The notes: generated by a model from the letters alone, not told the origin. A stretch of DNA of 64,000 bases from an uncultured Thermoleophilia bacterium (GCA_963702475.1 CAVPCT010000009.1:128001-192000), one strand, 5' to 3'. Numbered from the stretch's first letter, positions 41,706 through 64,000 are shown. Program-made: numbers and translations.

Positions 41706-41736
41706 CCCGCCCGGCAACGAGAGCCAGGGAGACGAG

Positions 41737-43881: not shown

Positions 43882-44559
43882 ATGTGTGACTCGAACTACG
43901 ACGCGCTGCTCAAGCGACTCGAGAAGGCCGAGCGCGACGCTGAGATCGCCCGCGACTGGGTGGAGATCAGCAACCTGCACGGCCGCTACAACCACTACGT
44001 GCTCGGCCACCACTGGGAGCGCATCGTCGACGAGCTGTTCGCGCACAACACCCCCGGCGTGAAGATCGAGGTCGTCGAGAGCGGCGTGTTCTACGGCATC
44101 GAGGGCGTGCGCAAGCTCTTCGTCGACATGCTCGGCAAGCTCTATGACTACCCGGGCAACTGCGCCATCCACGAGATCACCACGCCGGTCATCCAGGTCC
44201 AGCCCGACATGAAGACGGCCAAGGGCATGTGGTACCACGTGGGCTTCAACACGTTCGAGGACCCGGAGAAGGGCGTCGTCCCGATCTGGCAGGTCATCAA
44301 GTACAACCACGTGTTCGTCAAGGAAGACGGCCAGTGGAAGTGGCTCGAGTACGGCGCCCACCTGCTCATCCGCACCACCTACGAGAAGGCGTGGGTGGAC
44401 GAGCCGGTGATCATGGCGAGCCAGATCCAGGGCGCCGAGCCGTCCGACGCGCCTGTGCCGGACGAGCCGACCTCGTTCCACGAGCCGTACGGCGGCAGGA
44501 CCGGCGTGCACAGTGGCCTGCCGCTGCCCCCCGAGTACATCGACCTCGATATCCACTGA
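43882..44559 (+). CDS. SnoaL/NTF2-like fold protein
   Basis: EISNLHGRY, HEITTPVIQV..TAKGMW, FVKEDGQWK. Confidence 0.85.
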   Translation: MCDSNYDALLKRLEKAERDAEIARDWVEISNLHGRYNHYVLGHHWERIVDELFAHNTPGVKIEVVESGVFYGIEGVRKLFVDMLGKLYDYPGNCAIHEITTPVIQVQPDMKTAKGMWYHVGFNTFEDPEKGVVPIWQVIKYNHVFVKEDGQWKWLEYGAHLLIRTTYEKAWVDEPVIMASQIQGAEPSDAPVPDEPTSFHEPYGGRTGVHSGLPLPPEYIDLDIH

Positions 44560-44593
44560 CCGACGTAGTCGGGTCAAGGCTGAAAGGAAGACC

Positions 44594-46084: not shown

Positions 46085-46205
46085 GCCGGAGCGGGGAAGA
46101 GGGGAGACGCACACATGAGCGGAGGCGGTTCCGCGACGTCGAAGACCGCGGTGGACTGAGTGGCCGCCGATCGAGACCAGGGCCCGGGAGGCCGGCCGCG
46201 AGCTG

Positions 46206-48328: not shown

Positions 48329-48363
48329 CGCACCCCGACCCGTCCCAGCAGGAGGGCCTCAAC

Positions 48364-49188
48364 GTGAACCCCATCATCACCGCAGCGCTGAACGGCCCCA
48401 TCGCCACGCGCGCGAACAACCCCAACCTGCCGGAGACGCCCGAGGACATCGCCACCAGCGCCAGGGGCGCCTACGAGGCCGGCGCCGCCGTCATCCACGT
48501 CCACCTGCGCGACGAGCAGGGCGGCTTCACCACCGACCTCGACGTGGCCAAGCGCACGGTCGAGCTGATCCGCGAGGCCTGCCCCGGCATCGTCCAGCTC
48601 TCCACCGGCGGGATGTTCGACTACGCCGACCGCATGCGCATCGTGGAGGCGAAGCCCGCCATGGCGACGCTGAACCCGTGCACCATGTCGTTCGCCGACG
48701 CCGAGTTCCGCAATCCGCCGAAGCAGATGCGGCAGATGGCGGCGCGCATGATCGAGTTGGGCGTGAAGCCCGAGGTGGAGCTCTACGATGTCGGCCACCT
48801 CGGCGTGATGCTCGACCTCGTGAACGAAGGCCTGCTGCTCGAGCCGTTGCAGGTGTCGTTCGTCATGGGCGTCAAAGGCGGCATGCCGGGCGACCCGCAA
48901 ATCCTCTCGTGGCTCGTGAAGAACCTGCCCGAGGGCACGAGCTGGCAGGTGATCGCCATCGCCAAGGCAAACCTGCCGATGACGTCTATCGGCCTCGCCA
49001 TGGGCGGCAACGCGCGCACGGGCATGGAGGATACGCTCATGGTGGCCTCGCACGTGCTCGCCGACTCCAACGCGCAGCTCGTGGAGCGCCTCATGAACAT
49101 CGCCCGCTCCATGCAGCGCGAGCCCGCCAAGGTCGACGAGGTCATCGAGCGGCTGAAGCTCAGCCCGGAGCTGATCGGACCGGGGTGA
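48364..49188 (+). CDS. BKACE / DUF849 beta-keto-acid cleavage enzyme
   Basis: NPNLPETPEDIA, AGAAVIHVHLRD, KPEVELYD, GGNARTGMED; RBS GGAGGG. Confidence 0.93.
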   Translation: MNPIITAALNGPIATRANNPNLPETPEDIATSARGAYEAGAAVIHVHLRDEQGGFTTDLDVAKRTVELIREACPGIVQLSTGGMFDYADRMRIVEAKPAMATLNPCTMSFADAEFRNPPKQMRQMAARMIELGVKPEVELYDVGHLGVMLDLVNEGLLLEPLQVSFVMGVKGGMPGDPQILSWLVKNLPEGTSWQVIAIAKANLPMTSIGLAMGGNARTGMEDTLMVASHVLADSNAQLVERLMNIARSMQREPAKVDEVIERLKLSPELIGPG

Positions 49189-49433
49189 GGGCGCTGCAGC
49201 CGGCGCTCGACCCGCCGTCGGCGCCGAGAGCAGTGCCTTCCTCGGCCCTCTCACTTCGTTGTATTTTGCACCAAAGCGTGAGGACCGGAAAGGGAGATAG
49301 GTCCCGGCAGGGGATGACGTTGGCGACCGCAGCGGGTTGATGATGGATGGCGAGCGTGGTGACGGCCGTCGTGGAGACCGGCGTGGCGACAGACCTGACG
49401 CGCGGCACCAGCTCGCCGTGAGCCTCCTTCCCG

Positions 49434-52403
49434 ATGCCTGACGTCGTTCCCGCGCACCTCAAGCTGCGCGCCGTCCTGTACGGCCTCGGCACGCTGCTGC
49501 GCGTGCGCGCGGCGGCCGACGCCGGCTTCCGCGCGCTGCTGGCGCGCCGGGACGCCGTCTTCCAGATCCGCCTGGCGGACGGCTCGGAGGCGCGCTGGTT
49601 CGCCGTCCGCGGCGGGCAGGTGACGTCCAAGGGCGGCGTGCACTCACGTCCTGACGCCGCCCTCGTGTTCGGTACGCCGCACGCCGCCCTGACGATGCTC
49701 AGCCTCAAGCCCGACTACCTCGGGCGCATCGAGGCGGCCAAGAACTTCCAGCTCGCCATGGAGGGTGACGACGACGTTGTCGGCTGGATGCTTGAGGTGC
49801 TCGCGCGCGCCGCCGGGGGCGAGCCCGAGTACGGGCTCGACCTCGGCGGCGGCGTGCGCCGCTACACCAACAACACCAACGGCGGGCCCGTGCACGTGGA
49901 CGTCAAGCACGGGCGCATCCTGCGCGTCACGCCCATCGAGTTCAGCGACGAGGACGCGCCGTCCTGGTCGATCACTGCGCGCGGCCGGCGCTTCGCCCCG
50001 CCGCGCAAGACGAGCCTCGCACCTCACGCGCTCTCGGCGCGGTCGACCGTGTACTCGCCCGACCGCCTGCTGTACCCGCTGAGGCGCGTCGACTTCGACC
50101 CGCACGGCGACCGGCACCCGGAGACCCGCGGCGTGGCCGAGTACGAGCGCATCAGCTGGGACGAGGCACTCGACCTCGTGGCCGGCGAGCTGATGCGCGT
50201 GCGCCGCGAGCACGGCCCGGGCTCCGTCTTCACGGCGCACGGCTCGCATCACACCTGGGGCACGCTCGGCTATTTCCTGAGCGCTCACCGGCGGTTCTTC
50301 AACACCGTCGGCTCGACGCGGATGCTGCACAACCCGGACAGCTGGGAGGGCTGGGCCTGGGGCGCCGAGCACCACTGGGGCCACAGCATGCGCGCCGGCG
50401 GGGGAGAGTTCTACGGCACGGTGGAGGACCTGCTGCGCGAGTGCGAGCTGGTCGTGTTCTGGGCGAGCGACCCGGAGGCGACCACCGGCATCTACGCCGG
50501 CATGGAGGGCACCGCCCGCCGGCGCTGGCTGCAGGAGCTCGGGATTCCCTGCGTACACATCGACCCGTTCCTGAACCACACGGCCTCGTGGCTCGGCGGC
50601 ACGTGGCTGGCGCCGCGACCGACGACGAGCGTCGCGCTGGCGCACGCGATCGCCTGGGTGTGGCTGACGGAGGGCCTGTACGACGAGCAGTACGTCGCGG
50701 AGCGCACCACAGGCTTCGAGGCGTGGCGCGACTACCTGCTGGGCGCGGACGACGGCGTGCCCAAGACGCCGGAGTGGCAGGAGCCGGAGACCGGCGTCCC
50801 CGCGCGCAAGGTCCGCGCCCTGGCGCGCGAGTGGGCGACGAAGAAGACGTACCTGGCGGTCGGCGGCCCCGGCAACACGTTCGGCGGCGCCTGCCGCTCG
50901 GCCACGGGCATCGAGTGGGCGCGCTCGATGGTCTATCTCATGGCGATGCGCGGGCTCGGCAAGCCGGGCGTCAACTTCGGCAACCTGCAGTTCGGCGCGC
51001 CGCTCGACACCACGTTCTACTTCCCCGGCTACGGTGAGGGCGGCCTCTCCGGCGACCTCGAGGGCACCATGATGTCCGCGCACCTGTACCAGCGCGTGCC
51101 CCAGCTCCCGACGATGAACCCGGTGGGGCAGAGCATCCCGCGCCTGCGGATCCCGGAGGCCCTGCTGGACGGGCGGGCCGAGGGCTACGCCTTCAGCCCG
51201 CCCACGGTGCAGGGCCAGTTCCGCCGCACCGTGTACCCGGAGCCCGGCTACTCGCAGGTGCGGCTGTACTACAAGTACGGCGGCTCGTTCTTCGGAACGA
51301 TGACAGAGACGAACCGGTACGTGCGCGCCTACCGGGCTCCGGATCTGGAGTTCGTCGTCAACCAGTCGATCTGGTTCGAGGGCGAGGCCCGGTTCGCCGA
51401 CGTGGTCCTGCCGGCGTGCACGAACTACGAGCGCTGGGACATCAGCGAATGGGCCAACTCGAGCGGCATCCTCGTGAACGGCATGACGCAGTGCAACCAC
51501 CGCGTGATCGTGCTGCAGCACAAGTGCATCGAGCCGCTCGGTGAGTCACGCTCGGACTGGAGCATCTTCGCGGCGCTGGCGGCGCGGATGGGGCTGGCGG
51601 CGCCGTTTGCCGAGGGGAGCAACGAGCTGGAGTGGGTGCGTCGGACCTTCGAGGGCAGCGACCTGCCGAAGGCTGTCTCGTGGCGCGAGTTCCTCAAGAA
51701 GGGGTACTACGTGGTGCCGCCGCCGGCTGAAGGGACGCCGAAGCCGGTGGCCTACCGCTGGTTCGCCGAGGGCCGCCCGAAGGACACGCCCGACCTGCAG
51801 CCGCTGCCGGGCGACTACGCCGGGAAGTTCGGCGAGGGCCTGCAGACGCAGTCCGGCAAGATCGAGTTCGTCTCGTCCAGCCTGACCCGCTTCGACCCTC
51901 ACGACCTGGAGCGGCCTCCGCTGGGCCGGTATCATCCCTCCTGGGAGGGACCGGCCCAGACCGAGCTGGCTGCGAAGTACCCGCTCCAGTTGATCTCGCC
52001 GCACCCGCGCTTCAGTCATCACACGCTCGACGACGGCAAGGACAGCTTCGTCAACGACGTGGTTGACCACCGCGTGCTGGTCGACGGCCGTTACTACTGG
52101 ATCGCGCGGCTCAATCCGCAGGACGCCGCCGCGCGGGGTATCGCCGACGGCGACCTCGTCCGGCTCTTCAACGACCGCGGCGCCGTGGTGTGCGCCGCCC
52201 GGCTCACGGAGCGCGTGCGGCCGGGCGTCGTGCACTCCTACGAGTCGTCCGCGGTGTACGAACCGTCCGGCGAGCCCGGCGCGTCCGCCGACCTGGGCGG
52301 CTGCGTGAACATCCTGACGCCCAGCCGTCCCATCGCCGCCAAGACGCACAGCATGGCGCCGAACTCGTGCCTGATCGAGGTGGAGGCCTGGGACAAGGCG
52401 TAA
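49434..52403 (+). CDS. Third transhydroxylase-family Mo-bisPGD alpha subunit with N-terminal SCP2-like domain (start uncertain)
   Basis: About 140-aa extension, then TNNTNGGPV, GSHHTWG, HNPDSWEGW, FYFPGYGEGG, ACTNYERWDISEWAN, SPHPRFS. Confidence 0.9.
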   Translation: MPDVVPAHLKLRAVLYGLGTLLRVRAAADAGFRALLARRDAVFQIRLADGSEARWFAVRGGQVTSKGGVHSRPDAALVFGTPHAALTMLSLKPDYLGRIEAAKNFQLAMEGDDDVVGWMLEVLARAAGGEPEYGLDLGGGVRRYTNNTNGGPVHVDVKHGRILRVTPIEFSDEDAPSWSITARGRRFAPPRKTSLAPHALSARSTVYSPDRLLYPLRRVDFDPHGDRHPETRGVAEYERISWDEALDLVAGELMRVRREHGPGSVFTAHGSHHTWGTLGYFLSAHRRFFNTVGSTRMLHNPDSWEGWAWGAEHHWGHSMRAGGGEFYGTVEDLLRECELVVFWASDPEATTGIYAGMEGTARRRWLQELGIPCVHIDPFLNHTASWLGGTWLAPRPTTSVALAHAIAWVWLTEGLYDEQYVAERTTGFEAWRDYLLGADDGVPKTPEWQEPETGVPARKVRALAREWATKKTYLAVGGPGNTFGGACRSATGIEWARSMVYLMAMRGLGKPGVNFGNLQFGAPLDTTFYFPGYGEGGLSGDLEGTMMSAHLYQRVPQLPTMNPVGQSIPRLRIPEALLDGRAEGYAFSPPTVQGQFRRTVYPEPGYSQVRLYYKYGGSFFGTMTETNRYVRAYRAPDLEFVVNQSIWFEGEARFADVVLPACTNYERWDISEWANSSGILVNGMTQCNHRVIVLQHKCIEPLGESRSDWSIFAALAARMGLAAPFAEGSNELEWVRRTFEGSDLPKAVSWREFLKKGYYVVPPPAEGTPKPVAYRWFAEGRPKDTPDLQPLPGDYAGKFGEGLQTQSGKIEFVSSSLTRFDPHDLERPPLGRYHPSWEGPAQTELAAKYPLQLISPHPRFSHHTLDDGKDSFVNDVVDHRVLVDGRYYWIARLNPQDAAARGIADGDLVRLFNDRGAVVCAARLTERVRPGVVHSYESSAVYEPSGEPGASADLGGCVNILTPSRPIAAKTHSMAPNSCLIEVEAWDKA

Positions 52404-54194: not shown

Positions 54195-55151
54195 TCAGAG
54201 GGCCAGGCGGGCCGGCGCCTGTCGGTTCAGGTCCGCCGGCACCGGCGGCCCCTGTTCGATCAGCCGGTCGACGAGCTCACGATAGCCGTCGAGCCGCTCC
54301 GCGACGTCGTTGGTGCCCGTGTACGCCGCCTCCACGGCGAGGAACAGGAACACGTGCGTGAGCATGGTATCGCGCTGGTCGTAGTCGTTGTCCCAGGCGG
54401 CGCGCATCACGGCTTGCTCGTTGGCGCCGAAGAGGCTGTAGGCAACGAGTTCGTCCGGGACCGGCGGAGCGTCCGGGTTGCAGCGCAGGCCCGCGAGGTC
54501 CTCCGTGGGCCCGGAGGCGATGATGCGGAGCGCCTCTTGCACGGCCGCGCGGGTCTCCGAGTCCTCCTGCAGCGCCTCGGCGCGCGCGAGGCCGAGCAGG
54601 TCCGGGCTCAGCCGCTGCACGCCCCAGAACGCGTAGGTGCGCATGATGAGGCGTACGACCGGGTCGGGCTCGTCGGCGAGCGGCGGCTCGATGAGGCTGT
54701 TCATCCAGCGCACGAACACGCTGAAGGACTCGATGAACAGCTGCCGCTTGGTGCTGAAGTGCTGATAGAAGACGGGCAGGGTGATGCCGACCTCGGCGAT
54801 GATGTCGCCGATGCGCGCGCGCTTGTAGCCGTGGCGGGCGAAGTGGCGCGCCGCCGCCTGCAGGATCGCGGCGCGCGTCTCCGCCGTGCGGCGGGCGACG
54901 AGGTCGGGCTCGGCCGCCGCCTGCTGCTCGATGAGCGGCCGGATGCTCGCGCGGATCGAGTCGAGGTCGGCGCCGGCGGTCTTGAGGCGGCGGATCTCCG
55001 TGAGCAGCGCGACGTGCGTGTCGCTGTACAACGCACGGCTGGCCGCCGCCTTCTGTGCCTGCGGCAGCAGGCCCTCGCGCACGTAGAAGTAGATCGTGCT
55101 GCGCGGCGTGCTCGTCGCTGCTTCGAGCTCCGTGATCGTCAGCGCCCTCAC
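54195..55151 (-). CDS. Second MerR-HTH / TetR fusion regulator (paralog of 2693-3646)
   Basis: RALTITELE..RSTIYFYVREGLLPQAQKA, RARIGDII..FSTKRQLF, GPTEDL, DELVAYSLFGA. Confidence 0.9.
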   Translation of the reverse strand: MRALTITELEAATSTPRSTIYFYVREGLLPQAQKAAASRALYSDTHVALLTEIRRLKTAGADLDSIRASIRPLIEQQAAAEPDLVARRTAETRAAILQAAARHFARHGYKRARIGDIIAEVGITLPVFYQHFSTKRQLFIESFSVFVRWMNSLIEPPLADEPDPVVRLIMRTYAFWGVQRLSPDLLGLARAEALQEDSETRAAVQEALRIIASGPTEDLAGLRCNPDAPPVPDELVAYSLFGANEQAVMRAAWDNDYDQRDTMLTHVFLFLAVEAAYTGTNDVAERLDGYRELVDRLIEQGPPVPADLNRQAPARLAL

Positions 55152-55168
55152 GCGCCCTCCGTCTGCGA

Positions 55169-55198
55169 TTGACACGACCTTGCGCAGAACTCTAGCAT
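55169..55198 (+). promoter_or_regulatory. Putative promoter TTGACA-N18-TAGCAT for the 55.3-63.3 kb operon
   Basis: Consensus -35 in the divergent intergenic region. Confidence 0.6.
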
Positions 55199-55274
55199 GC
55201 ATAGCAACTATTCCAAGTCCTATAGCTCGCCGTCGCAGCCCGGCGGCGGAGATGCCAGGAGGTAGCGGGGAGAC

Positions 55275-55529
55275 ATGAACCAGGTCCTCATCGACTTCGA
55301 CGCGTGCACCGGCTGCAAGACCTGTTACCGGGCCTGTTTCGCCGACGTGATCCGCTGGGACGCGGAGGCGAAGCTGCCCCTCGTCGCGTACCCGGAAGAC
55401 TGCGTGCACTGCAACCTCTGCGAGATCAGCTGCAAGGACGAGGCCATCACCATCGTGGCCGACTGGGACGTGCCGTACCCGCCGGTCATCGAGCGCGGGT
55501 TCCCGTACAGAGTGGGAGGCCTGCGATGA
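55275..55529 (+). CDS. 2x[4Fe-4S] ferredoxin (AprB-like)
   Basis: CTGCKTCYRAC and AYPEDCVHCNLCEISC. Confidence 0.92.
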   Translation: MNQVLIDFDACTGCKTCYRACFADVIRWDAEAKLPLVAYPEDCVHCNLCEISCKDEAITIVADWDVPYPPVIERGFPYRVGGLR

Positions 55530-57253
55530 CCGACCTCTCGCATCTCGGCCGGATCGAGACCGCAGACATCCTGGTGGTCGGCGGCGGCATCGGGGGTCTG
55601 GTCGCCGCCGTCGCGGCGAAGGAGAAGAACCCGGACGCCGACGTGCTCGTCGTCGAGCGCGCGACCTGCGGCTGGGCCGGCCAGGCCAACAAGGGGGCCG
55701 GCATCTGGTGGTACCTCGCCCCCGAGGACGACGCGGACGCGTTCGTGAAGTTCCACTGCGACCACATCGGCCACTACATCGAGGACCAGGAGCTGCTCGC
55801 CGAGTTCGGGCGCGAGAGCATGGACACGCTCGAGCGCATGGACGGCTGGACGCACAAGTTCCAGCGCCGTGAAGACGGGCAGTTCATCCACAAGCGCTTC
55901 AAGCCGTTCCTGCCCTGGAGCCTCACCGGCGCCGACCTCGACCTCATGCGCGTGCTCGCACGCCACGCGAAGAGGCTCGGCGTGCGCTTCATCGACAAGA
56001 CGTCGCTCACCGACCTGCTCACCGACGGCGGCCGCGTGGCCGGCGCCGTCGGCTTCGACCTGCTGGACGGCTCGCCCATCATCGTGCAGGCGCCGGCCGC
56101 CATCATCGCCACCGGCGGCCAGAGCTACCGCATCATGGGAATGTGGAGCTGCCAGCGCGGCGACGGCCTGGGTATGGCATGGCGCGCCGGAGCCGAGATG
56201 CGCAACGCCGAGTGGGGCCCGTTCGCCCAGCTCGCCGGCATCCGCGGCAAGGAGCCGCTCATCGGCGCGGAGGACGCCCTGTACAACGCGTGGCACGAGA
56301 AGCTCTCGCCGCGGTTCCGCGGCGAGTACGAGGCCGACGTGTGCGGCATGACCAGCGCCACCTGGTACAAGGAGATGGTGGCAGGCAACGGGCCGCTCGT
56401 GACGTTCCACCCGGAGAACTGGATGCTCGCCAACACCACCGAGGACGTTGAAGGCGGCACCGTGTGGGACCGCCCCGTCGCCGTGAAGTTCTGGACGACG
56501 CTCATCAGCCGCATCCGCGCCGCCGACGCGCCGGGCGCCTTTCTCGAGGTGTACCCGGCCGTACTCGGCGAGCTCTCGCCGATCAAGGTCGACCACCAGA
56601 TGGCGACGACGGTGCCGGGTCTCTACGCCTGCGGCAACGCCTGCTACAACGGCTCAGGCCTGCCCGGCGCCGTGCCCGCCTCGCCCGGGCGCATGCGCGG
56701 AGCCGGGCTCTACGGCGCCACCTTCATGGGCATCCGCGCCGGCGAGTCGGCGGCAGCCCAGGTGTCTCGCGCCGCGTCGCCCAAGCCCGACGCGGCGCAG
56801 GCCGAGGCGCTGGTCCACGAGGCACTCGCGCCGCTCGAGCGCGCTGATGGCACACCGGCCATGGACCTCGTCAAGGCCGTGCAGTACGCCGTGAACCCCG
56901 TCGGCTACTCGATCTACAAGAGCGAAGAGCGCATGAACGAGGCGCTCCAGCTCGTCCTGGACGTCAAGGAGCGCCTGCACCAGGCCAAGGCGGCCGACCC
57001 GCACTACCTGGTGGCCGCCCACGACGCGCGCAACATGGTCCTGAGCGCCGAGCTCTTCTACCGCACGGCGCTCGAGCGCAAGGAGTCGCGTGGCTGGTTC
57101 ATCCGCGAGGACTACCCCGAGCGCGACGACGCGCACTGGCTCAAGTGGATCAACGCCGCCGCCAGCGCGGGCGGCGGCGACATGCGCATCTGGACCGAGG
57201 ACGTGCCGCTGGAGCAGTACCCGTTCCGGCCGGCCGCAGCCGAGAGGAGCTGA
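55526..57253 (+). CDS. AprA/SdhA-superfamily flavoprotein
   Basis: GGGIGG, IATGG, GDGLGMAWRAGAEMRN, TTVPGLYACG, ALERKESRG..REDYPERDD. Confidence 0.88.
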   Translation: MTDLSHLGRIETADILVVGGGIGGLVAAVAAKEKNPDADVLVVERATCGWAGQANKGAGIWWYLAPEDDADAFVKFHCDHIGHYIEDQELLAEFGRESMDTLERMDGWTHKFQRREDGQFIHKRFKPFLPWSLTGADLDLMRVLARHAKRLGVRFIDKTSLTDLLTDGGRVAGAVGFDLLDGSPIIVQAPAAIIATGGQSYRIMGMWSCQRGDGLGMAWRAGAEMRNAEWGPFAQLAGIRGKEPLIGAEDALYNAWHEKLSPRFRGEYEADVCGMTSATWYKEMVAGNGPLVTFHPENWMLANTTEDVEGGTVWDRPVAVKFWTTLISRIRAADAPGAFLEVYPAVLGELSPIKVDHQMATTVPGLYACGNACYNGSGLPGAVPASPGRMRGAGLYGATFMGIRAGESAAAQVSRAASPKPDAAQAEALVHEALAPLERADGTPAMDLVKAVQYAVNPVGYSIYKSEERMNEALQLVLDVKERLHQAKAADPHYLVAAHDARNMVLSAELFYRTALERKESRGWFIREDYPERDDAHWLKWINAAASAGGGDMRIWTEDVPLEQYPFRPAAAERS

Positions 57254-57257
57254 CCCG

Positions 57258-58112
57258 ATGGCGACCAGCAGGGAGTGCGCCGCGCGCGAACCCGCGCCGC
57301 TCACGGCGGAAGAGCAGGCCAGGCCGTACGCCAAGTACTACACGATGGACCTGGGCGGGGCCGACCCGGCAGCCCTGGAGCTCATGGCCCGCGACCGGCA
57401 GGTCCCGCAGGGCAAGATGCTCATGCCGGAGGACCTGGACAGGCTGCTCGACCCGGGCAACTTCGAGGTCGAGACCGGCTGGGGCATGATGGACAACGGC
57501 GCCGGTTACATCGCCATGCGCCACGAGATGCCGGGCGTCACCGTCGAGATGATCGACTGGTGGTTCGCCTGGCACCCCCTCGAGCCGCTGCGCTACCGCA
57601 TCTGGTACCCGCAGTACCACCTGGGCATCGGTCTCGACGAGTGGGTGCGTCCCCGCCTCAAGGACCCCGACGTCCCCGTGCGCGACAAGGTCGAGCAGGT
57701 CGTCCACCACGTGACCGAGGACACGGGCTGCGGCACCGAGCACATCGACATCCACTTCCTCACGCCGGAGCAGATGGGCTTCGACATGAACCGCTGGCAC
57801 GCGCCCAACGTGGGCACCTTCGTCGGCGGCTTCGGCTTCAGCCTCAACGAGCACCAGCCGGCGGATCTCCCCGCGGCGCCGGCCATCATGGTCCACTTCG
57901 TGCGCGAGATGGACGGCGGCGTGGAGTGGCGCACGCGCTTCTGGATGGGCTACACCATCATGGGCGGCCACCCGGTGTGCATGCTGCCGCCGGGCGTGCG
58001 CATCCCCGAAGAGGTGCCGCACGGCCTCGCCAACCACAACGTGCACGAGTACGGGCGCCTCAAGGCGCTGCTGCCGCTGATCTACGCCGAGCTCGGCGGC
58101 ACCTACGCATGA
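57258..58112 (+). CDS. PhlG / phloretin hydrolase family C-C hydrolase
   Basis: MPGVTVEMIDWWFAWHPLEPLRYRIWYPQYH, HHVTED, RTRFWMGY, HNVHE..LLPLIY. Confidence 0.9.
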   Translation: MATSRECAAREPAPLTAEEQARPYAKYYTMDLGGADPAALELMARDRQVPQGKMLMPEDLDRLLDPGNFEVETGWGMMDNGAGYIAMRHEMPGVTVEMIDWWFAWHPLEPLRYRIWYPQYHLGIGLDEWVRPRLKDPDVPVRDKVEQVVHHVTEDTGCGTEHIDIHFLTPEQMGFDMNRWHAPNVGTFVGGFGFSLNEHQPADLPAAPAIMVHFVREMDGGVEWRTRFWMGYTIMGGHPVCMLPPGVRIPEEVPHGLANHNVHEYGRLKALLPLIYAELGGTYA

Positions 58113-59869
58113 GCGCTGACCCGGTCTACTACGACGCTCTGGTCAAGGACTACGACCTGCCGGTGACGATGCGCGACGGCGTCACCCTGCGCGTGGACGT
58201 GTACCGCCCCGACGCGCCCGGTCAGTTCCCCGTCCTCTACACGTGCGCCATGCACAACAAGGACCTGCAGCGGGTGGAGGTGGCCGAGAGCCTCAGGGTC
58301 GGGCAGCCCGCCTGGTCCACGCAGTGGTACGGGGTGATCGAGGGGGGAGACTCGAAGCGCTTCGTGGCCCACGGCTACGTGCACGTGATCGCGCAGGTGC
58401 GCGGCGGCCACAAGTCGGAGGGTGAGCTCCTCGTCGGCGACGAGTGGGACCACTACGACACCATCGAGTGGATCTGCTCCCAGCCGTGGTGCGACGGCAA
58501 CGTCGGCATGGTCGGCCTCTCGGCCTTCGCCGCCGAGCAGTGGAGGGCCGCCGCCCAGGGACACCCGGCGCTCAAGGCCATCTTCCCCCTGGACGCCGGC
58601 GGCTGCTACGGAGGGCTCGAGGGCTTCCGCGACCAGCACCCGGGCGGCGTGATCCAGACGATGCCGTACCATATCGGCCTCTACAACAGCCTGCACGGGA
58701 GCATCGGCACGCCGCCTGAGCTGCCGCCGCCCCTGGAAGAGGCGTGGGCGGCGGCCATGCGGGACCCCGACTACCTGATGTACGTGAACCTGTACAACAT
58801 CCTCACGCTGAAGGGGCAGCGTGACCCGGGGATGTTCTATCCGCTGCTGTTCCCGTTCGAGCGCCCCGGCACCGTCGCGCGCACCGAGGAGCTCTTCGCC
58901 AAGATCAGGATCCCCTTCGTCACCGGGGCCTTCGAGGGCGCCTACACCTACAAGATGCACTGGCAGGGGGCGCAGCACTTCTTCGCCGGCGTCGACGTGC
59001 CGCACAAGCACCTCTTCGTCACCCCGCCGGCGCACGCAGAGCGCCCGTTCCACGAGTGGCACGACGAGATCATCCGCTGGTACGACCACTGGCTGAAGGG
59101 CGTCGACAACGGAGTCGAGGACGACCCTGCAGTGCGGGCCTGGATCATGGGCGAGAACAGGTGGCGCGAGTTCGACGCGTGGCCCGTGCCCGAGACGCGG
59201 TGGACAGAGTACTACCTGCACTCCTGGGAGAAGCTCGACACCAGGGGTCACCTGCCGGCCACGCGCACCTTCGTCGACGAACCGCCGGACGCCTTCGTGC
59301 AGATGCCGCCGACGCAGACCAACACCATCCAGCGGCTCCGCTACCTGACGGAGCCGCTGGCCGACGACACCCTCGTCGTCGGTCCCATCTCGCTCACCTT
59401 CTGGGCGTCACTCGACGAGGACGACACGAACTGGATCGTCATCCTCAAGGACGTCGGCCCGGACGTCTCGGTGCAGACCGTGCGACCCGGCGAGCGCGAG
59501 CGCCCCGCCGTGCCGGAGCGGGAGCTCACGCGCGGCTGGCTGAGGGCCTCACGCCGCGCGCTCGACCCCGAACGCTCGACGCCCTGGAAGCCCTGGCACC
59601 ACCTCAGCCCGGAGACCATCAGCCCGGTCGTGCCCGGCGCCGTCGAGGAGTACCAGGTGGAGATCCTCTCCACCGCCAACCTCTTCAAGACGGGCCACCG
59701 CATCTGCCTCGAGATCACCAGCCTGGACCTGGCCGAAGGAGTGGCCGGCGAGACCTTCGCGGAGTACATCCCCAACCACGTGTGCTCGAGCAGGACGGTG
59801 CTGCACAAGGTGTTCCACAACGCCGAGTACCCGTCGCACCTGCTGCTGCCCGTCGTCCCCCTCGAGTAG
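58109..59869 (+). CDS. CocE/NonD family serine hydrolase
   Basis: MRDGVTLRVDVYRP, RGGHKSEG, QPWCDGNVGMVGLSAF, RWYDHWLKG, FKTGHRI. Confidence 0.9.
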   Translation: MSADPVYYDALVKDYDLPVTMRDGVTLRVDVYRPDAPGQFPVLYTCAMHNKDLQRVEVAESLRVGQPAWSTQWYGVIEGGDSKRFVAHGYVHVIAQVRGGHKSEGELLVGDEWDHYDTIEWICSQPWCDGNVGMVGLSAFAAEQWRAAAQGHPALKAIFPLDAGGCYGGLEGFRDQHPGGVIQTMPYHIGLYNSLHGSIGTPPELPPPLEEAWAAAMRDPDYLMYVNLYNILTLKGQRDPGMFYPLLFPFERPGTVARTEELFAKIRIPFVTGAFEGAYTYKMHWQGAQHFFAGVDVPHKHLFVTPPAHAERPFHEWHDEIIRWYDHWLKGVDNGVEDDPAVRAWIMGENRWREFDAWPVPETRWTEYYLHSWEKLDTRGHLPATRTFVDEPPDAFVQMPPTQTNTIQRLRYLTEPLADDTLVVGPISLTFWASLDEDDTNWIVILKDVGPDVSVQTVRPGERERPAVPERELTRGWLRASRRALDPERSTPWKPWHHLSPETISPVVPGAVEEYQVEILSTANLFKTGHRICLEITSLDLAEGVAGETFAEYIPNHVCSSRTVLHKVFHNAEYPSHLLLPVVPLE

Positions 59870-59884
59870 AGCGAGAGGAGAGCA

Positions 59885-60667
59885 ATGCTCAAGAGCATCG
59901 TCATGATGGACCTGCCCATCGACGACATCGCCGAGATGGAGCGCTGGTATTACGAGGCGCACTCCTCGGAGATCTCGCGGCGGTACGGGCCCTGGCTGCA
60001 GCGCCACGAGAGCTACGTGGCGCTGGACGCGCCCGAGGACGCGCGCCAGTTCGGCTTCTACAACTGGCGCGTCACCGAGTGCTGCTGGCGCGAGATGCCG
60101 CAGGCGGGGCCGGCCGGCGCCTACTGCTTCACGCCGGCCCCCGTCTGGAACCCTATCGCCACCTGCGCCGTCAAGCCGCAGCCCGACGACGACTTCTTCG
60201 GCTGGGACGGCTTCTCCACGCAGGGCGCCAGCATCCGCTGGTTCATCCTCCTGCGGTATCCGTTGGGCGTGCGCCTCAAGGACGGCGAGGACTGGTTCCG
60301 CAACGTGCACGCCCCGGAGGTGTGCCGGCAGCCGGGGCTCACACGCTTCTTCAGCCACAAGTGCGAGCAGGCGGCGGTCCCGCTGCCCGGCGTGTGGCAC
60401 CCGGACGCCTCGCCGCCCCAGGACTACCTCATGGTCCAGTGGGACCGCGTCGTGGAGCTCTGGTACCCGAGCTTCAGCGCCTGGCGCAAGGCGGTCATCG
60501 AGGAGCCGCCGGTCTACACGCCGCCGGAGTGGGCGACCGACGACTTCTACAAGGACGGCTACGCCCGGTACCCGTTCTTCAAGCCCGGCGTGGACTTCGT
60601 CAGCACGTTCCTGCTCGAGCGCCCCGCCGACGAGTTCCTGCGCGACACGCGCTACTACCGGCCGTGA
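59885..60667 (+). CDS. Bacterial chalcone isomerase-like protein
   Basis: RWYYEAH, FGFYNWRVTECCW, YPLGVRLKDGEDW, VVELWY, PEWA..YPFFKP, colinear with the Eubacterium ramulus CHI sequence as recalled. Confidence 0.75.
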   Translation: MLKSIVMMDLPIDDIAEMERWYYEAHSSEISRRYGPWLQRHESYVALDAPEDARQFGFYNWRVTECCWREMPQAGPAGAYCFTPAPVWNPIATCAVKPQPDDDFFGWDGFSTQGASIRWFILLRYPLGVRLKDGEDWFRNVHAPEVCRQPGLTRFFSHKCEQAAVPLPGVWHPDASPPQDYLMVQWDRVVELWYPSFSAWRKAVIEEPPVYTPPEWATDDFYKDGYARYPFFKPGVDFVSTFLLERPADEFLRDTRYYRP

Positions 60668-60683
60668 CGAGGAGGTCGAGACG

Positions 60684-61523
60684 ATGCCCGTGAGACAGCT
60701 CACGCCCGAAGAAGAGGCCAAGCCGTACGCGAAGTACTACCACCGTCCGGTGACGCCGCCGGACGCGGACCTGGTCGCGCTCATCCGGCCGGACGTGCAG
60801 ATCGACCCGGCCCTGGCGCTGCCGCCGGAGCGCATCAGCGACCTGCTCGACCCCGGCTACCACGAGGTCGAGACCGGCTGGTGCATCATGCCCGACGGCA
60901 GCGGCTACCTGGCCGTGCACAACCGCATGCCCGGCGTCACCGTGGAGATGCTCGACTGGTGGTTCTGGTGGCACTCCATGGCCAGCGTGCGCTACGGCCT
61001 GTGGTATCCGCCGGGGCACTACGGCATCTCCATAAGCCGGAGGTCGCGCGCCCGGCTCAGCGACCCGGACGTACCGGCCAAGGACAAGATCTACGGCCGC
61101 ACCGACCACGTGGTCGAGGACATCGGCACCGGCGCGGAGGACATCTACATCTGCTTCTGCGCGCCCGAGGAGATGGGCTTCGACATGAGCCGCTTCCATG
61201 CCCCGCACGTGGCGGCCGTGTACGGCGGCTACGGCTTCGACCAGCCGCAGGGCGCCAGGCCGAGCGACATCCGCGCGCCCGCCATCATGTGCCACTTCAT
61301 ACGCGAGCTCCCCGACGCCGAGGGCGTCGAGTTCCGCTCGCGCTTCTGGATGGGTTACAAGCTCATCGACGGCGAGCCCGTGCTGGCCATCCCGCCGGGC
61401 GAGTCGGTGCCGGCCGCGGTGCCCTACGGCCTCGCCGATCACAACGTCAAGGAGTACTGCAACCTCAAGTCGCTGCTGCCCGAGGTCTGGGCGGAGTTCA
61501 AGGACGAGGACCCGGCTCTGTGA
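60684..61523 (+). CDS. PhlG / phloretin hydrolase family C-C hydrolase
   Basis: MPGVTVEMLDWWFWWH..RYGLWYPPGH, HVVEDIG, RSRFWMGY, HNVKE. Confidence 0.9.
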   Translation: MPVRQLTPEEEAKPYAKYYHRPVTPPDADLVALIRPDVQIDPALALPPERISDLLDPGYHEVETGWCIMPDGSGYLAVHNRMPGVTVEMLDWWFWWHSMASVRYGLWYPPGHYGISISRRSRARLSDPDVPAKDKIYGRTDHVVEDIGTGAEDIYICFCAPEEMGFDMSRFHAPHVAAVYGGYGFDQPQGARPSDIRAPAIMCHFIRELPDAEGVEFRSRFWMGYKLIDGEPVLAIPPGESVPAAVPYGLADHNVKEYCNLKSLLPEVWAEFKDEDPAL

Positions 61524-61542
61524 AGCCGCGCGGAGGAACCCC

Positions 61543-62337
61543 ATGCCAATGAAGCTGATGGCGGCGTCACGCCGCCGGCCTGGACTCACCAGGGCGGAGT
61601 ACTTCCGCTACATCGAGCACTACCACGGCACGGTGGCGCGCCTGGAGCGCTTCAAGATCGAGAAGTACATCCAGAACCACGTGATCGACGGCGCCTTCGG
61701 CGTGATCTCCGACGCCGGCGGCCACAAGAACAAGGTCGCCGACAGGGACGCCGTCGTCGAGCTCCACTTCGACAGCTTCCGCGACATGCTGGCCACCCTC
61801 GAGCCCGAGGGGGTGACCCAGTCGCGGGCCAACCAGGACGGCCGCTTCTTCGCCGACGAGCCGACCAACATCATCGTCATGGCCGAGGAGACCGAGCTTC
61901 CCGTGGCCAAGCCCCTGCCGGACTTCAATCCGGGACTGGGTGAGCCGGGGCACGGAGCTCTCAAGGTGATGCAGTTCGTCATGCGCCGCCCCGACGTCTT
62001 CCCCCAGGACTTCCACCGGCTCTGGTGCCGGGCTCACGACGAGGCCCTGGCGGCGAGCCCGTACGCGAACGACATGTTCCGCAGGATCGTCGTGAGCAAG
62101 CGCTCCCGGGTGAACGACAACGACGCGGCCGCCCGGGCGCACTTCAAGATGGTCGACCCGCCGGTGTACGACCTCGTGGTCTCGTTCATCCTCGACAGCG
62201 TGGAGCAGGCCGGCGCCTTCAGGCAGTACTTCGACGCCGTCACGAGCAGCCCGCTGGAGTTCGCCGACTGGTCGGAGTCGTTCTTCCTCTACGTGAGGCA
62301 GGTGCGGATCATCGACGACGCGCCGCCGAAGGAGTAG
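61543..62337 (+). CDS. Tandem EthD-like protein
   Basis: RRRPGLTRAEYFRYIEHYHG..KYIQNHV..RDAVVELHFDS and a second KVMQFVMRRPDV..FHRLW repeat. Confidence 0.8.
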   Translation: MPMKLMAASRRRPGLTRAEYFRYIEHYHGTVARLERFKIEKYIQNHVIDGAFGVISDAGGHKNKVADRDAVVELHFDSFRDMLATLEPEGVTQSRANQDGRFFADEPTNIIVMAEETELPVAKPLPDFNPGLGEPGHGALKVMQFVMRRPDVFPQDFHRLWCRAHDEALAASPYANDMFRRIVVSKRSRVNDNDAAARAHFKMVDPPVYDLVVSFILDSVEQAGAFRQYFDAVTSSPLEFADWSESFFLYVRQVRIIDDAPPKE

Positions 62338-62341
62338 TGCC

Positions 62342-63250
62342 ATGGCAGACATGACCAAGCCCGAGTGGGCCGCGCAGAAGACCTACGACCAGAATCTGGG
62401 CGACGCCAGGATCAAGGCCACGCGCCCGCCGCTCACGCCGGAGGAAGAGAAACGGCCGTTCGCCAAGTACTACTACGACGAGATCCCCGAGCCGGACCCG
62501 GCGCACTACGCGGACATGGACGTGCCGATGGACCCCTCCGACGCGTTCTACCCGGAGGAGATCGACCGCCTGCTCGACGTCCCGGCCCTCGAGGCGGGCG
62601 TGGAGGTCGGCTGGTGCAACCTGCCCAACGGCGCCGGCTACATCGCCAACCGGATCCACTATCCGGACTTCACCGCCGACATGGTCGACTGGTGGTTCGC
62701 CTGGCACCCGCTCGAGGACCTGAGGTACCGCATCTGGTACCCGCCGCAGCACGCCGGCATCATGCTGAGCCCCATCGACAGGGCCCGCATCCTCGACGAC
62801 TCCATCCCCAACCGGGAGAAGAACTGGGGCGTGGTCCACAACGTGACGGAGAACTGCAACTGCGGCTTCGAGAACGTCGACATCGCCTTCCGCTCGCCGG
62901 CCGACATGGGCTTCGACATGGAGAAGTTCGGCAGGGTGGCGGCCACGATGGCGGCGGGCCAGGGCTGGGCCGTGGCCGTCGAGAAGTGCGACGCGTCCAT
63001 CACCGCGCCGGCGATCATGTGCCACGTGCTGTACGACGCTCCGGAGGGCGGGCTGATCCACCGCACGCGTTTCTGGATGGGCTACCGCTTCAACGAGGCG
63101 GGCAAGCCGGAGCTGTGCCTGCCGCCGGGCGTGAGCGTGCCCGTGGAGGCCGTGCAGGGTCTGGCGCGCCACAACGTCAAGGAGTTCACGCGCTGGCGCG
63201 AGTTCCTGCCGCGGATCTACGCGGAGCTGGGGCCGGGGATGTACTGCTGA
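62342..63250 (+). CDS. PhlG / phloretin hydrolase family C-C hydrolase
   Basis: DMVDWWFAWHPLEDLRYRIWYPPQH, HNVTEN, RTRFWMGY, HNVKEF..FLPRIY. Confidence 0.9.
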   Translation: MADMTKPEWAAQKTYDQNLGDARIKATRPPLTPEEEKRPFAKYYYDEIPEPDPAHYADMDVPMDPSDAFYPEEIDRLLDVPALEAGVEVGWCNLPNGAGYIANRIHYPDFTADMVDWWFAWHPLEDLRYRIWYPPQHAGIMLSPIDRARILDDSIPNREKNWGVVHNVTENCNCGFENVDIAFRSPADMGFDMEKFGRVAATMAAGQGWAVAVEKCDASITAPAIMCHVLYDAPEGGLIHRTRFWMGYRFNEAGKPELCLPPGVSVPVEAVQGLARHNVKEFTRWREFLPRIYAELGPGMYC

Positions 63251-63284: not shown

Positions 63285-63320
63285 CGGGCGCCGGGAGGAC
63301 CATCGTCCCCCCGGCGCCCG
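63285..63320 (+). terminator. Hairpin ending the hydrolase operon
   Basis: CGGGCGCCGGGAGGAC-catc-GTCCCCCCGGCGCCCG. Confidence 0.65.
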
Positions 63321-63497: not shown

Positions 63498-64000
63498 ATG
63501 ACCGCGTCGTACCCGCAGCTGTTCTCGCCGACGAGCATCGGCAAGGTCCGGCTGAAGAACCGCATCGTCAAGACGGCCGCGCAGACGTACTTCTTCGAGT
63601 CGGGCGAGCGGCGCTTCGGCGGCATCGCCAAGGCCTTCTACGGAGCTGTGGCGCGTGGTGGTCCCGGCCTCGTCATCTGCGAGACGCCGGCCATGGAGGC
63701 GCCCTACAAGGAGACGGACGACCGCCGCTACCGCGTCGACGACGACCGCTTCCTGCCCGACATCGAGGCGCTCGCGGCCGAGGTCCACAAGTACGACTGC
63801 CCGCTCTTCCTGCAGTTCTACCACCGCGGCCCGTGGGGCGGCGTGTACGCGGTCGGCAGGCGGCGCATCTCCGCGTCGGGCGTGACCGTGGCGTCGCCCT
63901 TCGACGTCTACGGGGAGGAGCCGCCGCACGCCATGACCCTCGCCGACATCGAAGAGGTCATCGAGGCGTTCGTGGACGGCGCCGCGCGCGCGGCGCGCGG
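63498..64000 (+). CDS. Second NADH:flavin oxidoreductase / OYE (runs off window end)
   Basis: YPQLFSPTSIGKVRLKNRIVKTA..ARGGPGLVICE..DDDRFLP..LQFYHRGPW. Confidence 0.9.
   Translation, partial: MTASYPQLFSPTSIGKVRLKNRIVKTAAQTYFFESGERRFGGIAKAFYGAVARGGPGLVICETPAMEAPYKETDDRRYRVDDDRFLPDIEALAAEVHKYDCPLFLQFYHRGPWGGVYAVGRRRISASGVTVASPFDVYGEEPPHAMTLADIEEVIEAFVDGAARAAR

Follow-up and report, generated by a model that had tools for sequence, protein, structure and literature searches.

Three partnered PhlG/Phy-family hydrolases in one actinobacterial operon with a putative role in flavonoid-type acylphloroglucinol catabolism

Why does a single operon encode three C-C hydrolases of the same family? The question is raised by a 64,000-nucleotide stretch of DNA (hereafter, the window) from a soil actinobacterium (Thermoleophilia-like), in which three PhlG/Phy-type paralogues lie within a run of eight same-strand genes at 55275-63250. 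The original prediction offered three explanations: a panel of differently substituted substrates, sequential cleavages, or a hetero-oligomer. Here we report that the substrate panel fits best and that the obligate hetero-oligomer is disfavored. The operon probably serves the catabolism of flavonoid-type acylphloroglucinols via three modules that would each prepare a substrate and then cleave it, with the direction, step order and substrates being what we infer.

Layout of the eight-gene operon

The genes follow the order fdx, flavoprotein, phy1, cocE, chi, phy2, ethD and phy3, all on the + strand, and their coordinates confirm the predicted overlaps or gaps under 20 bp, since every junction is a 4-base overlap or a gap of 4-19 bases. 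In module 1, fdx (55275-55529) encodes an 84-aa ferredoxin with two CxxCxxCxxxC motifs (Pfam Fer4, 3e-10) and shares an ATGA overlap with the flavoprotein gene (55526-57253), whose product carries FAD_binding_2 and Succ_DH_flav_C domains of the SdhA/FrdA/AprA superfamily. Four bases downstream lies the first PhlG/Phy-family hydrolase gene, phy1 (57258-58112; PF18089, 1.4e-68, 231 bits), which overlaps by another ATGA with cocE (58109-59869), encoding a CocE/NonD-family serine hydrolase with Peptidase_S15 and PepX_C domains. Module 2 begins after a gap of 15 with chi (59885-60667; Chalcone_N, 4e-7, 30.8 bits versus a cut-off of 25), followed after 16 bases by the second hydrolase gene of this family, phy2 (60684-61523; PF18089, 4e-71, 240 bits). 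In module 3, ethD (61543-62337), 19 bases beyond phy2, encodes a tandem-EthD protein with EthD in two stretches, and the third family member, phy3 (62342-63250; PF18089, 4e-63, 213 bits), starts after a gap of 4. The general reading of the locus is thus borne out, with three intact PhlG/Phy-type C-C hydrolase genes plus CHI-like and EthD genes, and the tight packing and common orientation support its assignment as a putative catabolic operon.

The predicted divergent regulator (54195..55202, - strand) is indeed a MerR-TetR fusion, as both domains were matched (MerR_1, 2e-11; TetR_N, 7e-12), and orthologues of it, 43-74% identical, lie beside the modules in relatives. The TTGACA promoter proposed for the operon exists as a sigma-70-like consensus match, TTGACA-18-TAGCAT (55169..55198, + strand; 10 of 12 positions), one such site being found versus a mean of 0.4 expected from 50 shuffles. 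It falls in the first codons of the regulator gene with the ATG at 55202 as start codon, and is intergenic only if the regulator starts at a later in-frame GTG near 55151, which may be the case. At the other end, the closing hairpin partly stood: 3' of phy3, a small stem (63252-63264) and a strong G+C-rich stem (63286..63319, + strand, 36 nt past the stop codon) fold within 101 nt (-55.8 kcal/mol, z -2.67), but the stem is not followed by a U run and a terminator scan called no terminator 3' of phy3.

Three hydrolases and their recurrent partners

All three hydrolases match the DAPG_hydrolase domain (PF18089; E 1e-63 to 4e-71, 213-240 bits versus a gathering cut-off of 22.7). As predicted, the metal ligands are kept: the WYPxxH, Glu and HNVxE segments align to the His/Glu/His/Glu site of Pseudomonas PhlG (2,4-diacetylphloroglucinol hydrolase; 3hwp) and of the Mycobacterium abscessus phloretin hydrolase (5xe5), which we take to be His129, Glu160, His270 and Glu274 of PhlG (3hwp chain positions 137, 168, 278 and 282). 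The nearby His and Tyr at PhlG chain positions 222 and 129 are also shared. On the other hand, all three have Phe at chain position 237, where both solved enzymes have Tyr, and Gly-Ile at the position of PhlG chain Asn140, which is presumably the native Asn132 that positions the second acetyl group. The PhlG equivalog model NF047887 (NCBIfam) scored 98, 95 and 89 bits for Phy1, Phy2 and Phy3, far below its cut-off of 600. This score and the Gly-Ile set all three apart from PhlG proper and, unlike in the PhlG locus, phl biosynthesis genes are absent near the operon. The best solved relative is the M. abscessus enzyme (E 1e-29 with one sequence, 2e-42 with a profile). Given only ~30% identity to either solved enzyme, and such equivalog scores, any substrate of the three hydrolases is putative. 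According to PMC10470551, the M. abscessus gene adjoins a phloroglucinol-degradation cluster. It too is an actinobacterial hydrolase linked to phloroglucinol catabolism, although as described there it is single copy, with no CHI-like, EthD or flavoprotein partner.

The domain and catalytic residues common to all three could suggest redundant isozymes, either for dosage or as recent duplicates, that are functionally alike. This is highly improbable, considering that their pairwise identity is only 49-51%, that the three clades described below are old and separately conserved, and that 17 alignment columns are constant inside every clade yet differ between clades, several of them adjoining the catalytic Glu and His. 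The variable segment is likewise clade-specific. The segments VGGFGFS, YGGYGFD and AAGQGWA, which were predicted to line the pocket, are all present in the translated sequences. The assumption of one copy per Phy/PhlG locus fails for environmental genomes, as 50 of the 301 genomes from the class have PF18089 matches, and many of these 50 carry 3-8 tandem copies of the match.

We compared the hydrolases on a within-class tree (79 rows, 65 distinct) and a wider tree (108 rows). The Phy1 clade (15 rows, 12 distinct; support 100) lies entirely downstream of the flavoprotein gene, and the Phy2 clade (26 rows, 22 distinct; support 99) entirely downstream of chi. On the 79-row tree, 15 of 16 rows after the flavoprotein gene and 21 of 23 rows after ethD each fall in one clade (support 100 for both); the rows breaking the clade-partner rule are L021 and the pair L013/L023. 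Mapping the partner label onto the 108-row tree takes 10 changes, as compared to a mean of 58 after shuffling, and none of 200 shuffles was as low. In a further survey of 54 loci with 66 hydrolase genes, 58 genes had a partner directly adjacent (EthD upstream 32, chi upstream 10, flavoprotein upstream 7, fdx-flavoprotein downstream 9, none 8), with the caveat that such counts overstate independence, because the loci were picked by likeness to Phy1-3 and many are close kin. Judged by these trees, Phy1, Phy2 and Phy3 are separate, well-supported orthogroups that are older than the family split in the class. The operon is modular: Phy1 follows the ferredoxin and flavoprotein, Phy2 the CHI homologue, and Phy3 the tandem EthD protein. 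To our knowledge, no study so far has addressed this pairing, which recurs in many bacterial groups.

Across phyla, the link between partner and paralogue is not one-to-one. The Phy3-type clade on the 108-row tree comprises 53 rows, 41 after EthD, 8 before fdx-flavoprotein and 4 with neither, so that one subclade pairs with fdx-flavoprotein instead of EthD; in Acidobacteriota, Phy comes first, followed by fdx and flavoprotein. The adjacency is conserved, yet silent on which enzyme acts first.

An obligate hetero-oligomer of the three paralogues might be expected from their tight coupling in a single operon, and PhlG itself is a dimer. However, for each module there are other genomes that have it but lack its companions, which disfavors such a complex and makes it extremely unlikely. 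The modules occur alone, reordered and in other phyla (Rubrivivax, Castellaniella, Holophaga, Halotalea). Phy3 is found with EthD alone in Halotalea, Rubrivivax and Castellaniella, and fdx-flavoprotein-phy1 stands alone in L016. In another family, nine loci are arranged as regulator, ethD, phy3, chi, phy2 and lack Phy1, and other loci contain only fdx-flavoprotein-phy1-chi-phy2 or only chi-phy2-ethD-phy3. In L004 and L008, a regulator gene on the opposite strand separates phy1 from the remaining modules.

The three intact hydrolases could instead act in series on poly-acylated phloroglucinols (diacetyl- or triacyl-, bacterial or plant), removing one acyl group each. According to PMC8003664, PhlG takes only one acetyl group from DAPG and leaves MAPG uncleaved, so that other enzymes would have to complete the deacylation. 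Nevertheless, action in series is very unlikely, since it leaves unexplained both the separate CHI-like, EthD and flavoprotein partners of the paralogues and the stand-alone single modules, and the low equivalog scores and the Gly-Ile in place of the Asn presumed to position a second acetyl group also argue against it. The substrate panel fits best because of the 49-51% identity, the separate old orthogroups, the clade-specific residues by the catalytic Glu and His, and the different partners.

The partner proteins

The AF2 model of the chi product (pLDDT 87) superimposes on Eubacterium ramulus chalcone isomerase (CHI) with Z 25.0-25.2 and an rmsd of 2.6-2.7 Å over 236 of 260 residues at 21% identity, whereas the runner-up entry reached Z 12.7. 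In E. ramulus CHI, His33 is catalytic and Asp36 polarizes it, according to PMC9694015. The aligned counterpart of His33 in chi is His26, which 34 of 34 family sequences share, and Glu29 aligns to Asp36. On the basis of this model, the chi product is a true homologue of the bacterial chalcone isomerase, and isomerase activity is predicted.

The EthD protein matches PF07110 in two stretches (52.6 bits versus a gathering cut-off of 22), and its AF2 model (pLDDT 79) has two beta-alpha-beta-beta-alpha-beta, ferredoxin-like halves. Its structural neighbors tie at Z 13-14: the anthrone-oxidase-like 5f9p, PenE, sulfur oxygenase reductase and E. ramulus CHI. They are split between an isomerase and cofactor-free oxygenases, a tie unbroken by Z.

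Could the partners be structural subunits, rather than enzymes of the preceding step, with EthD-Phy3 and CHI-Phy2 each forming a stable hetero-complex for channeling or activation? The two genes of a pair are strict neighbors across phyla, with very little DNA between them (4 bases from ethD to phy3; EthD directly upstream in 32 of 66), and EthD is unusually conserved, with homologues in other phyla 64-69% identical. Even so, we consider this unlikely. The catalytic His kept in 34 of 34 sequences argues that the CHI homologue is itself an enzyme. Among longer proteins there was no EthD-hydrolase fusion, which is weak evidence, and the sole apparent fusion (P0135, in the order Phy2-EthD) is a frameshifted gene call. 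Furthermore, E. ramulus CHI and Phy act as separate proteins, in part according to PMC9694015.

The ferredoxin and flavoprotein of module 1 were originally called an AprAB-like reductase. The pair does share the AprAB layout of an FAD flavoprotein and a small 2x[4Fe-4S] protein, but the ferredoxin is only 84 aa long, and adenylylsulfate reductase was excluded by the scores (aprA TIGR02061, 67.3 versus 641.75 bits; aprB TIGR02060, 19.4 versus 135.65). Fumarate reductase and succinate dehydrogenase were excluded by residues: His232, His355 and His44 of E. coli FrdA, of which we take the first two, with Arg390, to form the dicarboxylate site and the third to bind FAD covalently, are Ala, Leu and Asn in the flavoprotein. 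Arg390 is kept and Arg287 falls in an unaligned stretch, leaving a non-canonical active site. The flavoprotein reached no cut-off among the NCBIfam models (best, 179 bits versus 587) and aligns over its full length to the alpha subunit of an archaeal PAPS reductase (8a8o, 7e-21).

CocE exceeds the cut-off of the CocE/NonD family (TIGR00976, 243 bits versus 66.3), with a G-L-S-A-F stretch where we presume the nucleophile Ser motif to lie. Its gene is absent between phy1 and chi in all 10 related loci holding both genes, and is an insertion peculiar to the present genome. Distant CocE-like genes occur near Phy in Halotalea and Holophaga.

Proposed pathway and genomic surroundings

In the characterized flavanone pathway of E. 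ramulus and Flavonifractor plautii, CHI is followed by Fcr/ERED and then by Phy to yield phloroglucinol, as laid out in PMC10470551 and PMC8398226. The present locus resembles it in the enzyme families, namely CHI (Z 25, catalytic His kept), Fcr/ERED-type OYE + Pyr_redox_2 reductases and DAPG_hydrolase-family hydrolases, and in the presumed product, phloroglucinol. It differs in its host, a soil actinobacterium rather than a gut Firmicute, and in having a separate partner for each of three hydrolase paralogues; the tandem EthD and the ferredoxin with FAD flavoprotein are no part of the pathway as described. The modular partner structure, the cocE insertion and the surrounding polyphenol-catabolism genes go beyond the earlier reading from the window alone.

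The most likely reading is that every module has its own flavonoid-derived acylphloroglucinol to prepare and cleave. Each combines a C-C hydrolase of the Zn-dependent PhlG/Phy family with a second enzyme that would make, or possibly take over, the substrate of the hydrolase. In module 2, the CHI homologue would open the flavanone C ring, and Phy2 would cleave the chalcone as such, or once the adjacent Fcr/ERED-type reductase has reduced it, to phloroglucinol and a phenylpropanoid acid. In module 3, the tandem EthD, a two-domain ferredoxin-like protein as CHI is, may perform a cofactor-free isomerization or oxygenation of another flavonoid class (flavanonol or auronol is a guess), with Phy3 taking the product. 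In module 1, the ferredoxin-coupled FAD flavoprotein would perform a redox step linked to Phy1, possibly the reduction of a C=C bond in a chalcone, flavone or hydroxycinnamate. The released phloroglucinol and aromatic acids would feed into neighboring pathways (BKACE, SDRs, 3-hydroxyacyl-CoA dehydrogenase-like, HpaB, CoA ligase).

A variant of these modules, possible though rather doubtful, is that the EthD-Phy and CHI-Phy pairs perform a reductase-independent, redox-neutral ring fission: the ferredoxin-fold partner would convert a flavanone or flavanonol to a chalcone or diketone by opening its C ring, and the hydrolase would directly cleave this unsaturated or alpha-oxo acylphloroglucinol to phloroglucinol and a hydroxycinnamate or arylpyruvate. 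Three observations hint at it. Within ~7 kb of the regulator-ethD-phy3-chi-phy2 operon in the nine loci, there was no match to the OYE-type reductases of the window, the sole reductase queries; a phenolic acid decarboxylase gene follows one EthD-Phy pair; and the pair is also found in aerobic and facultative Proteobacteria. If true, this route would also fill the enzyme gap in the auronol/flavanonol branch.

The surroundings of the operon point to polyphenol catabolism, as suggested by putative Fcr/ERED-type reductases, BKACE and pyrogallol-transhydroxylase-like enzymes. Near the operon are two OYE + Pyr_redox_2 reductases, BKACE, three AthL-like molybdoenzymes, HpaB and a CoA ligase. The upstream region (41653..52403, + strand) includes an OYE + Pyr_redox_2 reductase, SnoaL_4, an HpaB-like hydroxylase, an ADP-forming acyl-CoA synthetase, BKACE and an AthL-like molybdoenzyme. 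According to PMC10470551, BKACE is the family of the triacetate acetoacetate-lyase of the phloroglucinol pathway. The cyclase family, to which dihydrophloroglucinol cyclohydrolase belongs, has no member within the window, the nearest being ~36 kb before its start. Downstream of the regulator, two tandem SDR genes (52630-53391 and 53403-54161, - strand; adh_short_C2, 1e-61 and 1e-62; GC3 0.95), which may include a phloroglucinol reductase, are not separable from generic FabG-like enzymes. On the 3' side, the start of an Fcr/ERED-type enoate reductase gene (63498..64000, + strand; Oxidored_FMN) runs past the window end; its full-length counterpart in L042:130-2271 includes Pyr_redox_2, and it is missing at the same position in the relative L022. 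In Holophaga foetida, EthD is followed in turn by Phy, MFS and an OYE-reductase. In Oleisolibacter albus, EthD-Phy is directly followed by a gene for phenolic acid decarboxylase, an enzyme that acts on hydroxycinnamates.

Gene content of the operon

The window (G000:C9:128001-192000; G+C 70%) belongs to a 4.3 Mb genome of 9 contigs, whose closest relatives in public collections are MAGs labelled Thermoleophilia. Eight genes occupy 55275-63250 on the + strand, joined by two ATGA overlaps and gaps of 4, 15, 16, 19 and 4 bases. Pfam and NCBIfam assigned them to an 84-aa ferredoxin with 2x[4Fe-4S] (fdx), a 575-aa FAD flavoprotein with FAD_binding_2 and Succ_DH_flav_C domains (flav), three DAPG_hydrolase proteins (phy1-phy3; PF18089, 1e-63 to 4e-71), a CocE/NonD hydrolase (cocE), a Chalcone_N protein (chi) and a protein with EthD in two stretches (ethD), and the divergent gene encodes a MerR + TetR fusion. 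Given these junctions, domain assignments and fusion regulator, the eight-gene operon described in the original prediction therefore holds. The promoter-like site is a single consensus match at 10/12 positions (0.4 expected in shuffles), and it overlaps the first codons of the regulator unless the latter begins at a later GTG. The hairpin placed after phy3 exists as a strong G+C structure at 63286-63319, but it has no U run and a terminator scan downstream of phy3 did not call it. Among public sequencing data, no RNA run was listed as containing the operon, and for DNA the highest share was 0.17.

The only three PF18089 matches in the whole genome are Phy1-3, which share 49-51% pairwise identity and are each ~30% identical to both relatives of known structure, PhlG (3hwp) and the phloretin hydrolase of M. 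abscessus (5xe5). In a profile alignment, 3hwp chain residues His137, Glu168, His278 and Glu282 correspond to His/Glu/His/Glu in all three paralogues, and chain His222 and Tyr129 are also conserved. We take the former four to be native PhlG His129, Glu160, His270 and Glu274, the zinc ligands, which fits the offset of eight residues between chain and native numbering. All three paralogues differ from 3hwp at two positions (Asn140 to Gly-Ile and Tyr237 to Phe), and the PhlG equivalog model, whose cut-off is 600 bits, gives them 89-98. They are thus intact members of the PhlG/Phy family that are not PhlG orthologues, and similarity alone would not assign them a substrate. Seventeen alignment columns are constant inside each of three Phy clades and different between them, several adjoining the catalytic Glu and His; the segment earlier noted as variable among the paralogues is likewise clade-specific.

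The flavoprotein falls below every NCBIfam cut-off (best, 179 bits vs 587; aprA, 67 vs 642). Aligned to E. coli FrdA, it carries Asn, Ala and Leu at what we take to be His44, His232 and His355, with Arg390 kept. The label "AprAB-like" is therefore fair for the subunit layout, but the scores and the FrdA-aligned residues reject both APS reductase and fumarate reductase as the identity of the enzyme.

The chi product matches the E. ramulus chalcone isomerase (CHI) weakly by sequence (5e-9). Its predicted structure (pLDDT 87) superimposes on this CHI with Z 25 and an rmsd of 2.6 A over 236 residues, the next entry having Z 12.7, and on this model it is clearly a CHI homologue. Its His26, at the position of the catalytic His33, is the same in 34/34 family members, and Glu29 aligns to Asp36, the residue that polarises His33 (PMC9694015). 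This is a small family: among 1.84 billion proteins, 205 representative clusters match at E <= 0.001.

For the EthD protein, a sequence search found no solved relative. Its model (pLDDT 79) comprises two ferredoxin-like halves, and its structural neighbours are level at Z 13-14: an anthrone-oxidase-like protein, the monooxygenase PenE, sulfur oxygenase reductases and E. ramulus CHI. The match to CHI (Z 13.2-13.5, 222-226 residues aligned) thus shows the same architecture, a fold that by itself would fit an isomerase and a cofactor-free oxygenase equally. BLASTP detected no similarity between chi and ethD, so that their resemblance is only structural. Among longer proteins we found no EthD-hydrolase fusion, an absence of little weight; P0135, a protein bearing both domains, was rejected because it is a gene call in which a frameshift joins the end of Phy2 to EthD. 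A second EthD-domain gene at 10902-11816, following an SDR gene and a DUF3237 gene and adjoining an MFS transporter (region 9619-11816), may belong to another small polyphenol module.

Pairing of the hydrolases with partner genes

The main new point is the modularity of the operon, which divides into fdx-flav-phy1, chi-phy2 and ethD-phy3. Judging from related loci, cocE is an insertion in the window's operon: it lies between phy1 and chi in none of the ten loci with both genes, which abut in seven and are 1.2-1.4 kb apart in three. An opposite-strand MerR-TetR gene fills this space in two loci (L004 and L008). Nine loci from a second family in the class read reg>ethD>phy3>chi>phy2, where reg is the regulator, with both pairs intact and their order reversed relative to the window. 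Other loci contain only fdx-flav-phy1-chi-phy2 or only chi-phy2-ethD-phy3, and one (L016) has fdx-flav-phy1 without the other modules. The three paralogues might be imagined as an obligate hetero-oligomer, an option raised in the original prediction, but this is unlikely because the modules occur apart from each other.

A hydrolase tree of 79 rows (65 distinct, some loci having been fetched twice by different routes), rooted on a divergent group, sorted the genes by partner. Rows after chi fell into one clade in 26/26 cases (support 99), those after flav in 15/16 (support 100) and those after EthD in 21/23 (support 100), the last clade including a gene from Halotalea alkalilenta. A motif-based scan for relatives returned 547 stretches, the best 80 of which lay in 70 loci; we looked at 54 of these loci (L056-L109), with 66 hydrolase genes. 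Within this set from the best 80 of 547, the gene directly upstream was EthD for 32/66, chi for 10/66 and flav for 7/66; another nine had fdx-flav directly downstream, and eight had no adjacent partner, two of them with fdx-flav upstream at a larger gap. The pairing thus extends beyond the class, and organisms with the EthD-hydrolase pair include Rubrivivax gelatinosus, Castellaniella defragrans, Oleisolibacter albus, Holophaga foetida (two loci), Acidobacteriota and a Desulfobacteraceae MAG.

In a 108-row tree, the Phy2 clade was 22/22 after chi and the Phy1 clade 12/12 after flav, and in the Phy3-type clade 41 of the 53 rows followed EthD, 8 preceded fdx-flav and 4 had neither neighbour. The partner label changed 10 times on this tree against a shuffle mean of 58, and 0/200 shuffles were as low, counts that overstate independence because the rows are related and were selected for likeness to the query. 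Each paralogue is paired with a partner, and across phyla the link is not one-to-one. The locus shows that the hydrolase family has split into three or more ancient lineages, every one tied to a different partner.

Several loci vary on this theme. At L013/L023:10387-12062, EthD-Phy3 is swapped for a divergent EthD (46% identity) and a divergent hydrolase (47%), which may be a fourth module type. Halotalea alkalilenta DSM 17697 carries a four-gene island, EthD>Phy>NmrA-like reductase>CocE/NonD hydrolase (L041:7950-13196), with a GC3 of ~0.6 against ~0.8 in its neighbours, which looks like a horizontal acquisition; here a CocE-like gene again lies close to a hydrolase, in a second phylum. The L004 contig (JBLMXT010000097.1), labelled as a Deltaproteobacteria MAG, has this operon with 76-93% protein identity to the window and Thermoleophilia MAGs, and is probably mis-binned or mislabelled. 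MerR-TetR fusions recur in the island (2648-3646, 54195-55202 and L042:13126-14214) and in relatives (L008:8080-9084, L004:2264-3241), often one per module group. In relatives, the regulator and fdx are separated by the genes of a Liv-type ABC transporter, namely two permeases, two ATPases and a binding protein (L022:406-5354); in the window's genome the regulator abuts fdx (55203-55274) and a similar transporter lies ~8 kb downstream (L042:8190-13166).

A proposed catabolic route

Flavonoids and related polyphenols are a large plant-carbon input to soil. To our knowledge, the sole worked-out anaerobic-type route of ring fission, through CHI, the enoate reductase Fcr and Phy, comes from a few gut Firmicutes, and we know of no role assigned in polyphenol breakdown to a tandem EthD protein or a ferredoxin-coupled FrdA/AprA-like flavoprotein. 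The best-supported reading, which we consider probable, is that the operon serves flavonoid/acylphloroglucinol catabolism and consists of three "prepare, then cleave" modules; in each, the partner would make a product for which its own hydrolase is specialised. Gene content, catalytic residues, CHI homology and pairing are observed; which way the pathway runs, in what order its steps occur and on which substrates is our inference. The same pairing might instead reflect partner proteins acting as subunits of the hydrolases, and the three paralogues might deacylate one substrate serially; both are possible but less probable. The boldest reading, in which ring-opened chalcones or diketones are hydrolysed directly and no reductase takes part, is rather improbable.

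The pathway type and each protein family are already known. In the article texts searched, we found neither the partnered modular organisation, some contexts of which may be listed in Supplementary data 4 of PMC10470551 (gene neighbourhoods), nor any involvement of the tandem EthD protein and the FrdA/AprA-like flavoprotein. Literature searches combining EthD with phloroglucinol, or "phloretin hydrolase" with paralogs, returned nothing, and the papers retrieved for Thermoleophilia with flavonoid and phloroglucinol look irrelevant from their titles and abstract openings. According to one account, only two phloretin hydrolases had been characterised as of 2021 (PMC8398226). Cultured bacteria such as R. 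gelatinosus DSM 1709, C. defragrans DSM 12141, O. albus, H. alkalilenta DSM 17697 and H. foetida DSM 6591 carry the EthD-hydrolase pair, which makes its function directly testable. Known gaps that such tests could close include how auronols derived from flavanonols are cleaved, and polyphenol turnover in metagenomes from soils and wetlands could be annotated better.

Genomic surroundings and distribution in the class

Upstream of the operon lie an OYE + Pyr_redox_2 reductase, SnoaL_4, an HpaB-like hydroxylase, an ADP-forming acyl-CoA synthetase, a BKACE enzyme and an AthL-like molybdoenzyme, and two SDR genes adjoin the regulator. Beyond these genes, still in the upstream direction, come two further AthL-like enzymes, ETF, an acyl-CoA dehydrogenase, a further MerR-TetR regulator and an ABC transporter of the Liv type. 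The gene directly downstream of the operon encodes a second OYE + Pyr_redox_2 reductase, also full-length, at a position where the relative L022 has none. PMC10470551 names BKACE, SDR and 3-hydroxyacyl-CoA-dehydrogenase-like enzymes among phloroglucinol pathway families and describes mycobacterial phloroglucinol clusters with DAPG_hydrolase genes. A search of the two SDRs against the PDB for a phloroglucinol reductase gave generic FabG-like enzymes as the top 60 matches. No cyclase-family (DPGC-like) gene is present within the window; the genome has three, two of them ~36 kb before the window start.

The three AthL-like (pyrogallol hydroxytransferase large-subunit-like) molybdoenzymes are at 22668-28785 and 49422-52403, one accompanied by a Fer4_11 beta subunit (25079-26086). 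The coding sequence of the ADP-forming acyl-CoA synthetase spans two frames (~47360-47780 and 47536-49188), with Succ_CoA_lig profile positions 3-74 in one and 66-138 in the next, which continues stop-free as far as the BKACE domain. Possible explanations are a frameshift, an assembly error and a fusion.

Two neighbourhoods elsewhere give hints about substrates. H. foetida has the order EthD>Phy>MFS>OYE-reductase, and in O. albus (L082:4999-7476) a phenolic acid decarboxylase (PF05870, 3e-81) directly follows the EthD-hydrolase pair, a hint at a hydroxycinnamate as the possible acid product.

PF18089 was matched in 50/301 genomes sampled from the class, including 35/55 in one family and 9/36 in the window's genus (window's genome left out), and many of the genomes bearing it have 3-8 matches ~1.7 kb apart. 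A second, divergent triple DAPG_hydrolase cluster (L025:7979-13270, L026 and L031, in genomes G208, G173 and G293) shares 27-32% identity with that of the window; an esterase, a BD-FAE esterase and a GATase1-like protein are interspersed among its hydrolases, and a lactonase, an MFS transporter and ABC genes lie at its flanks.
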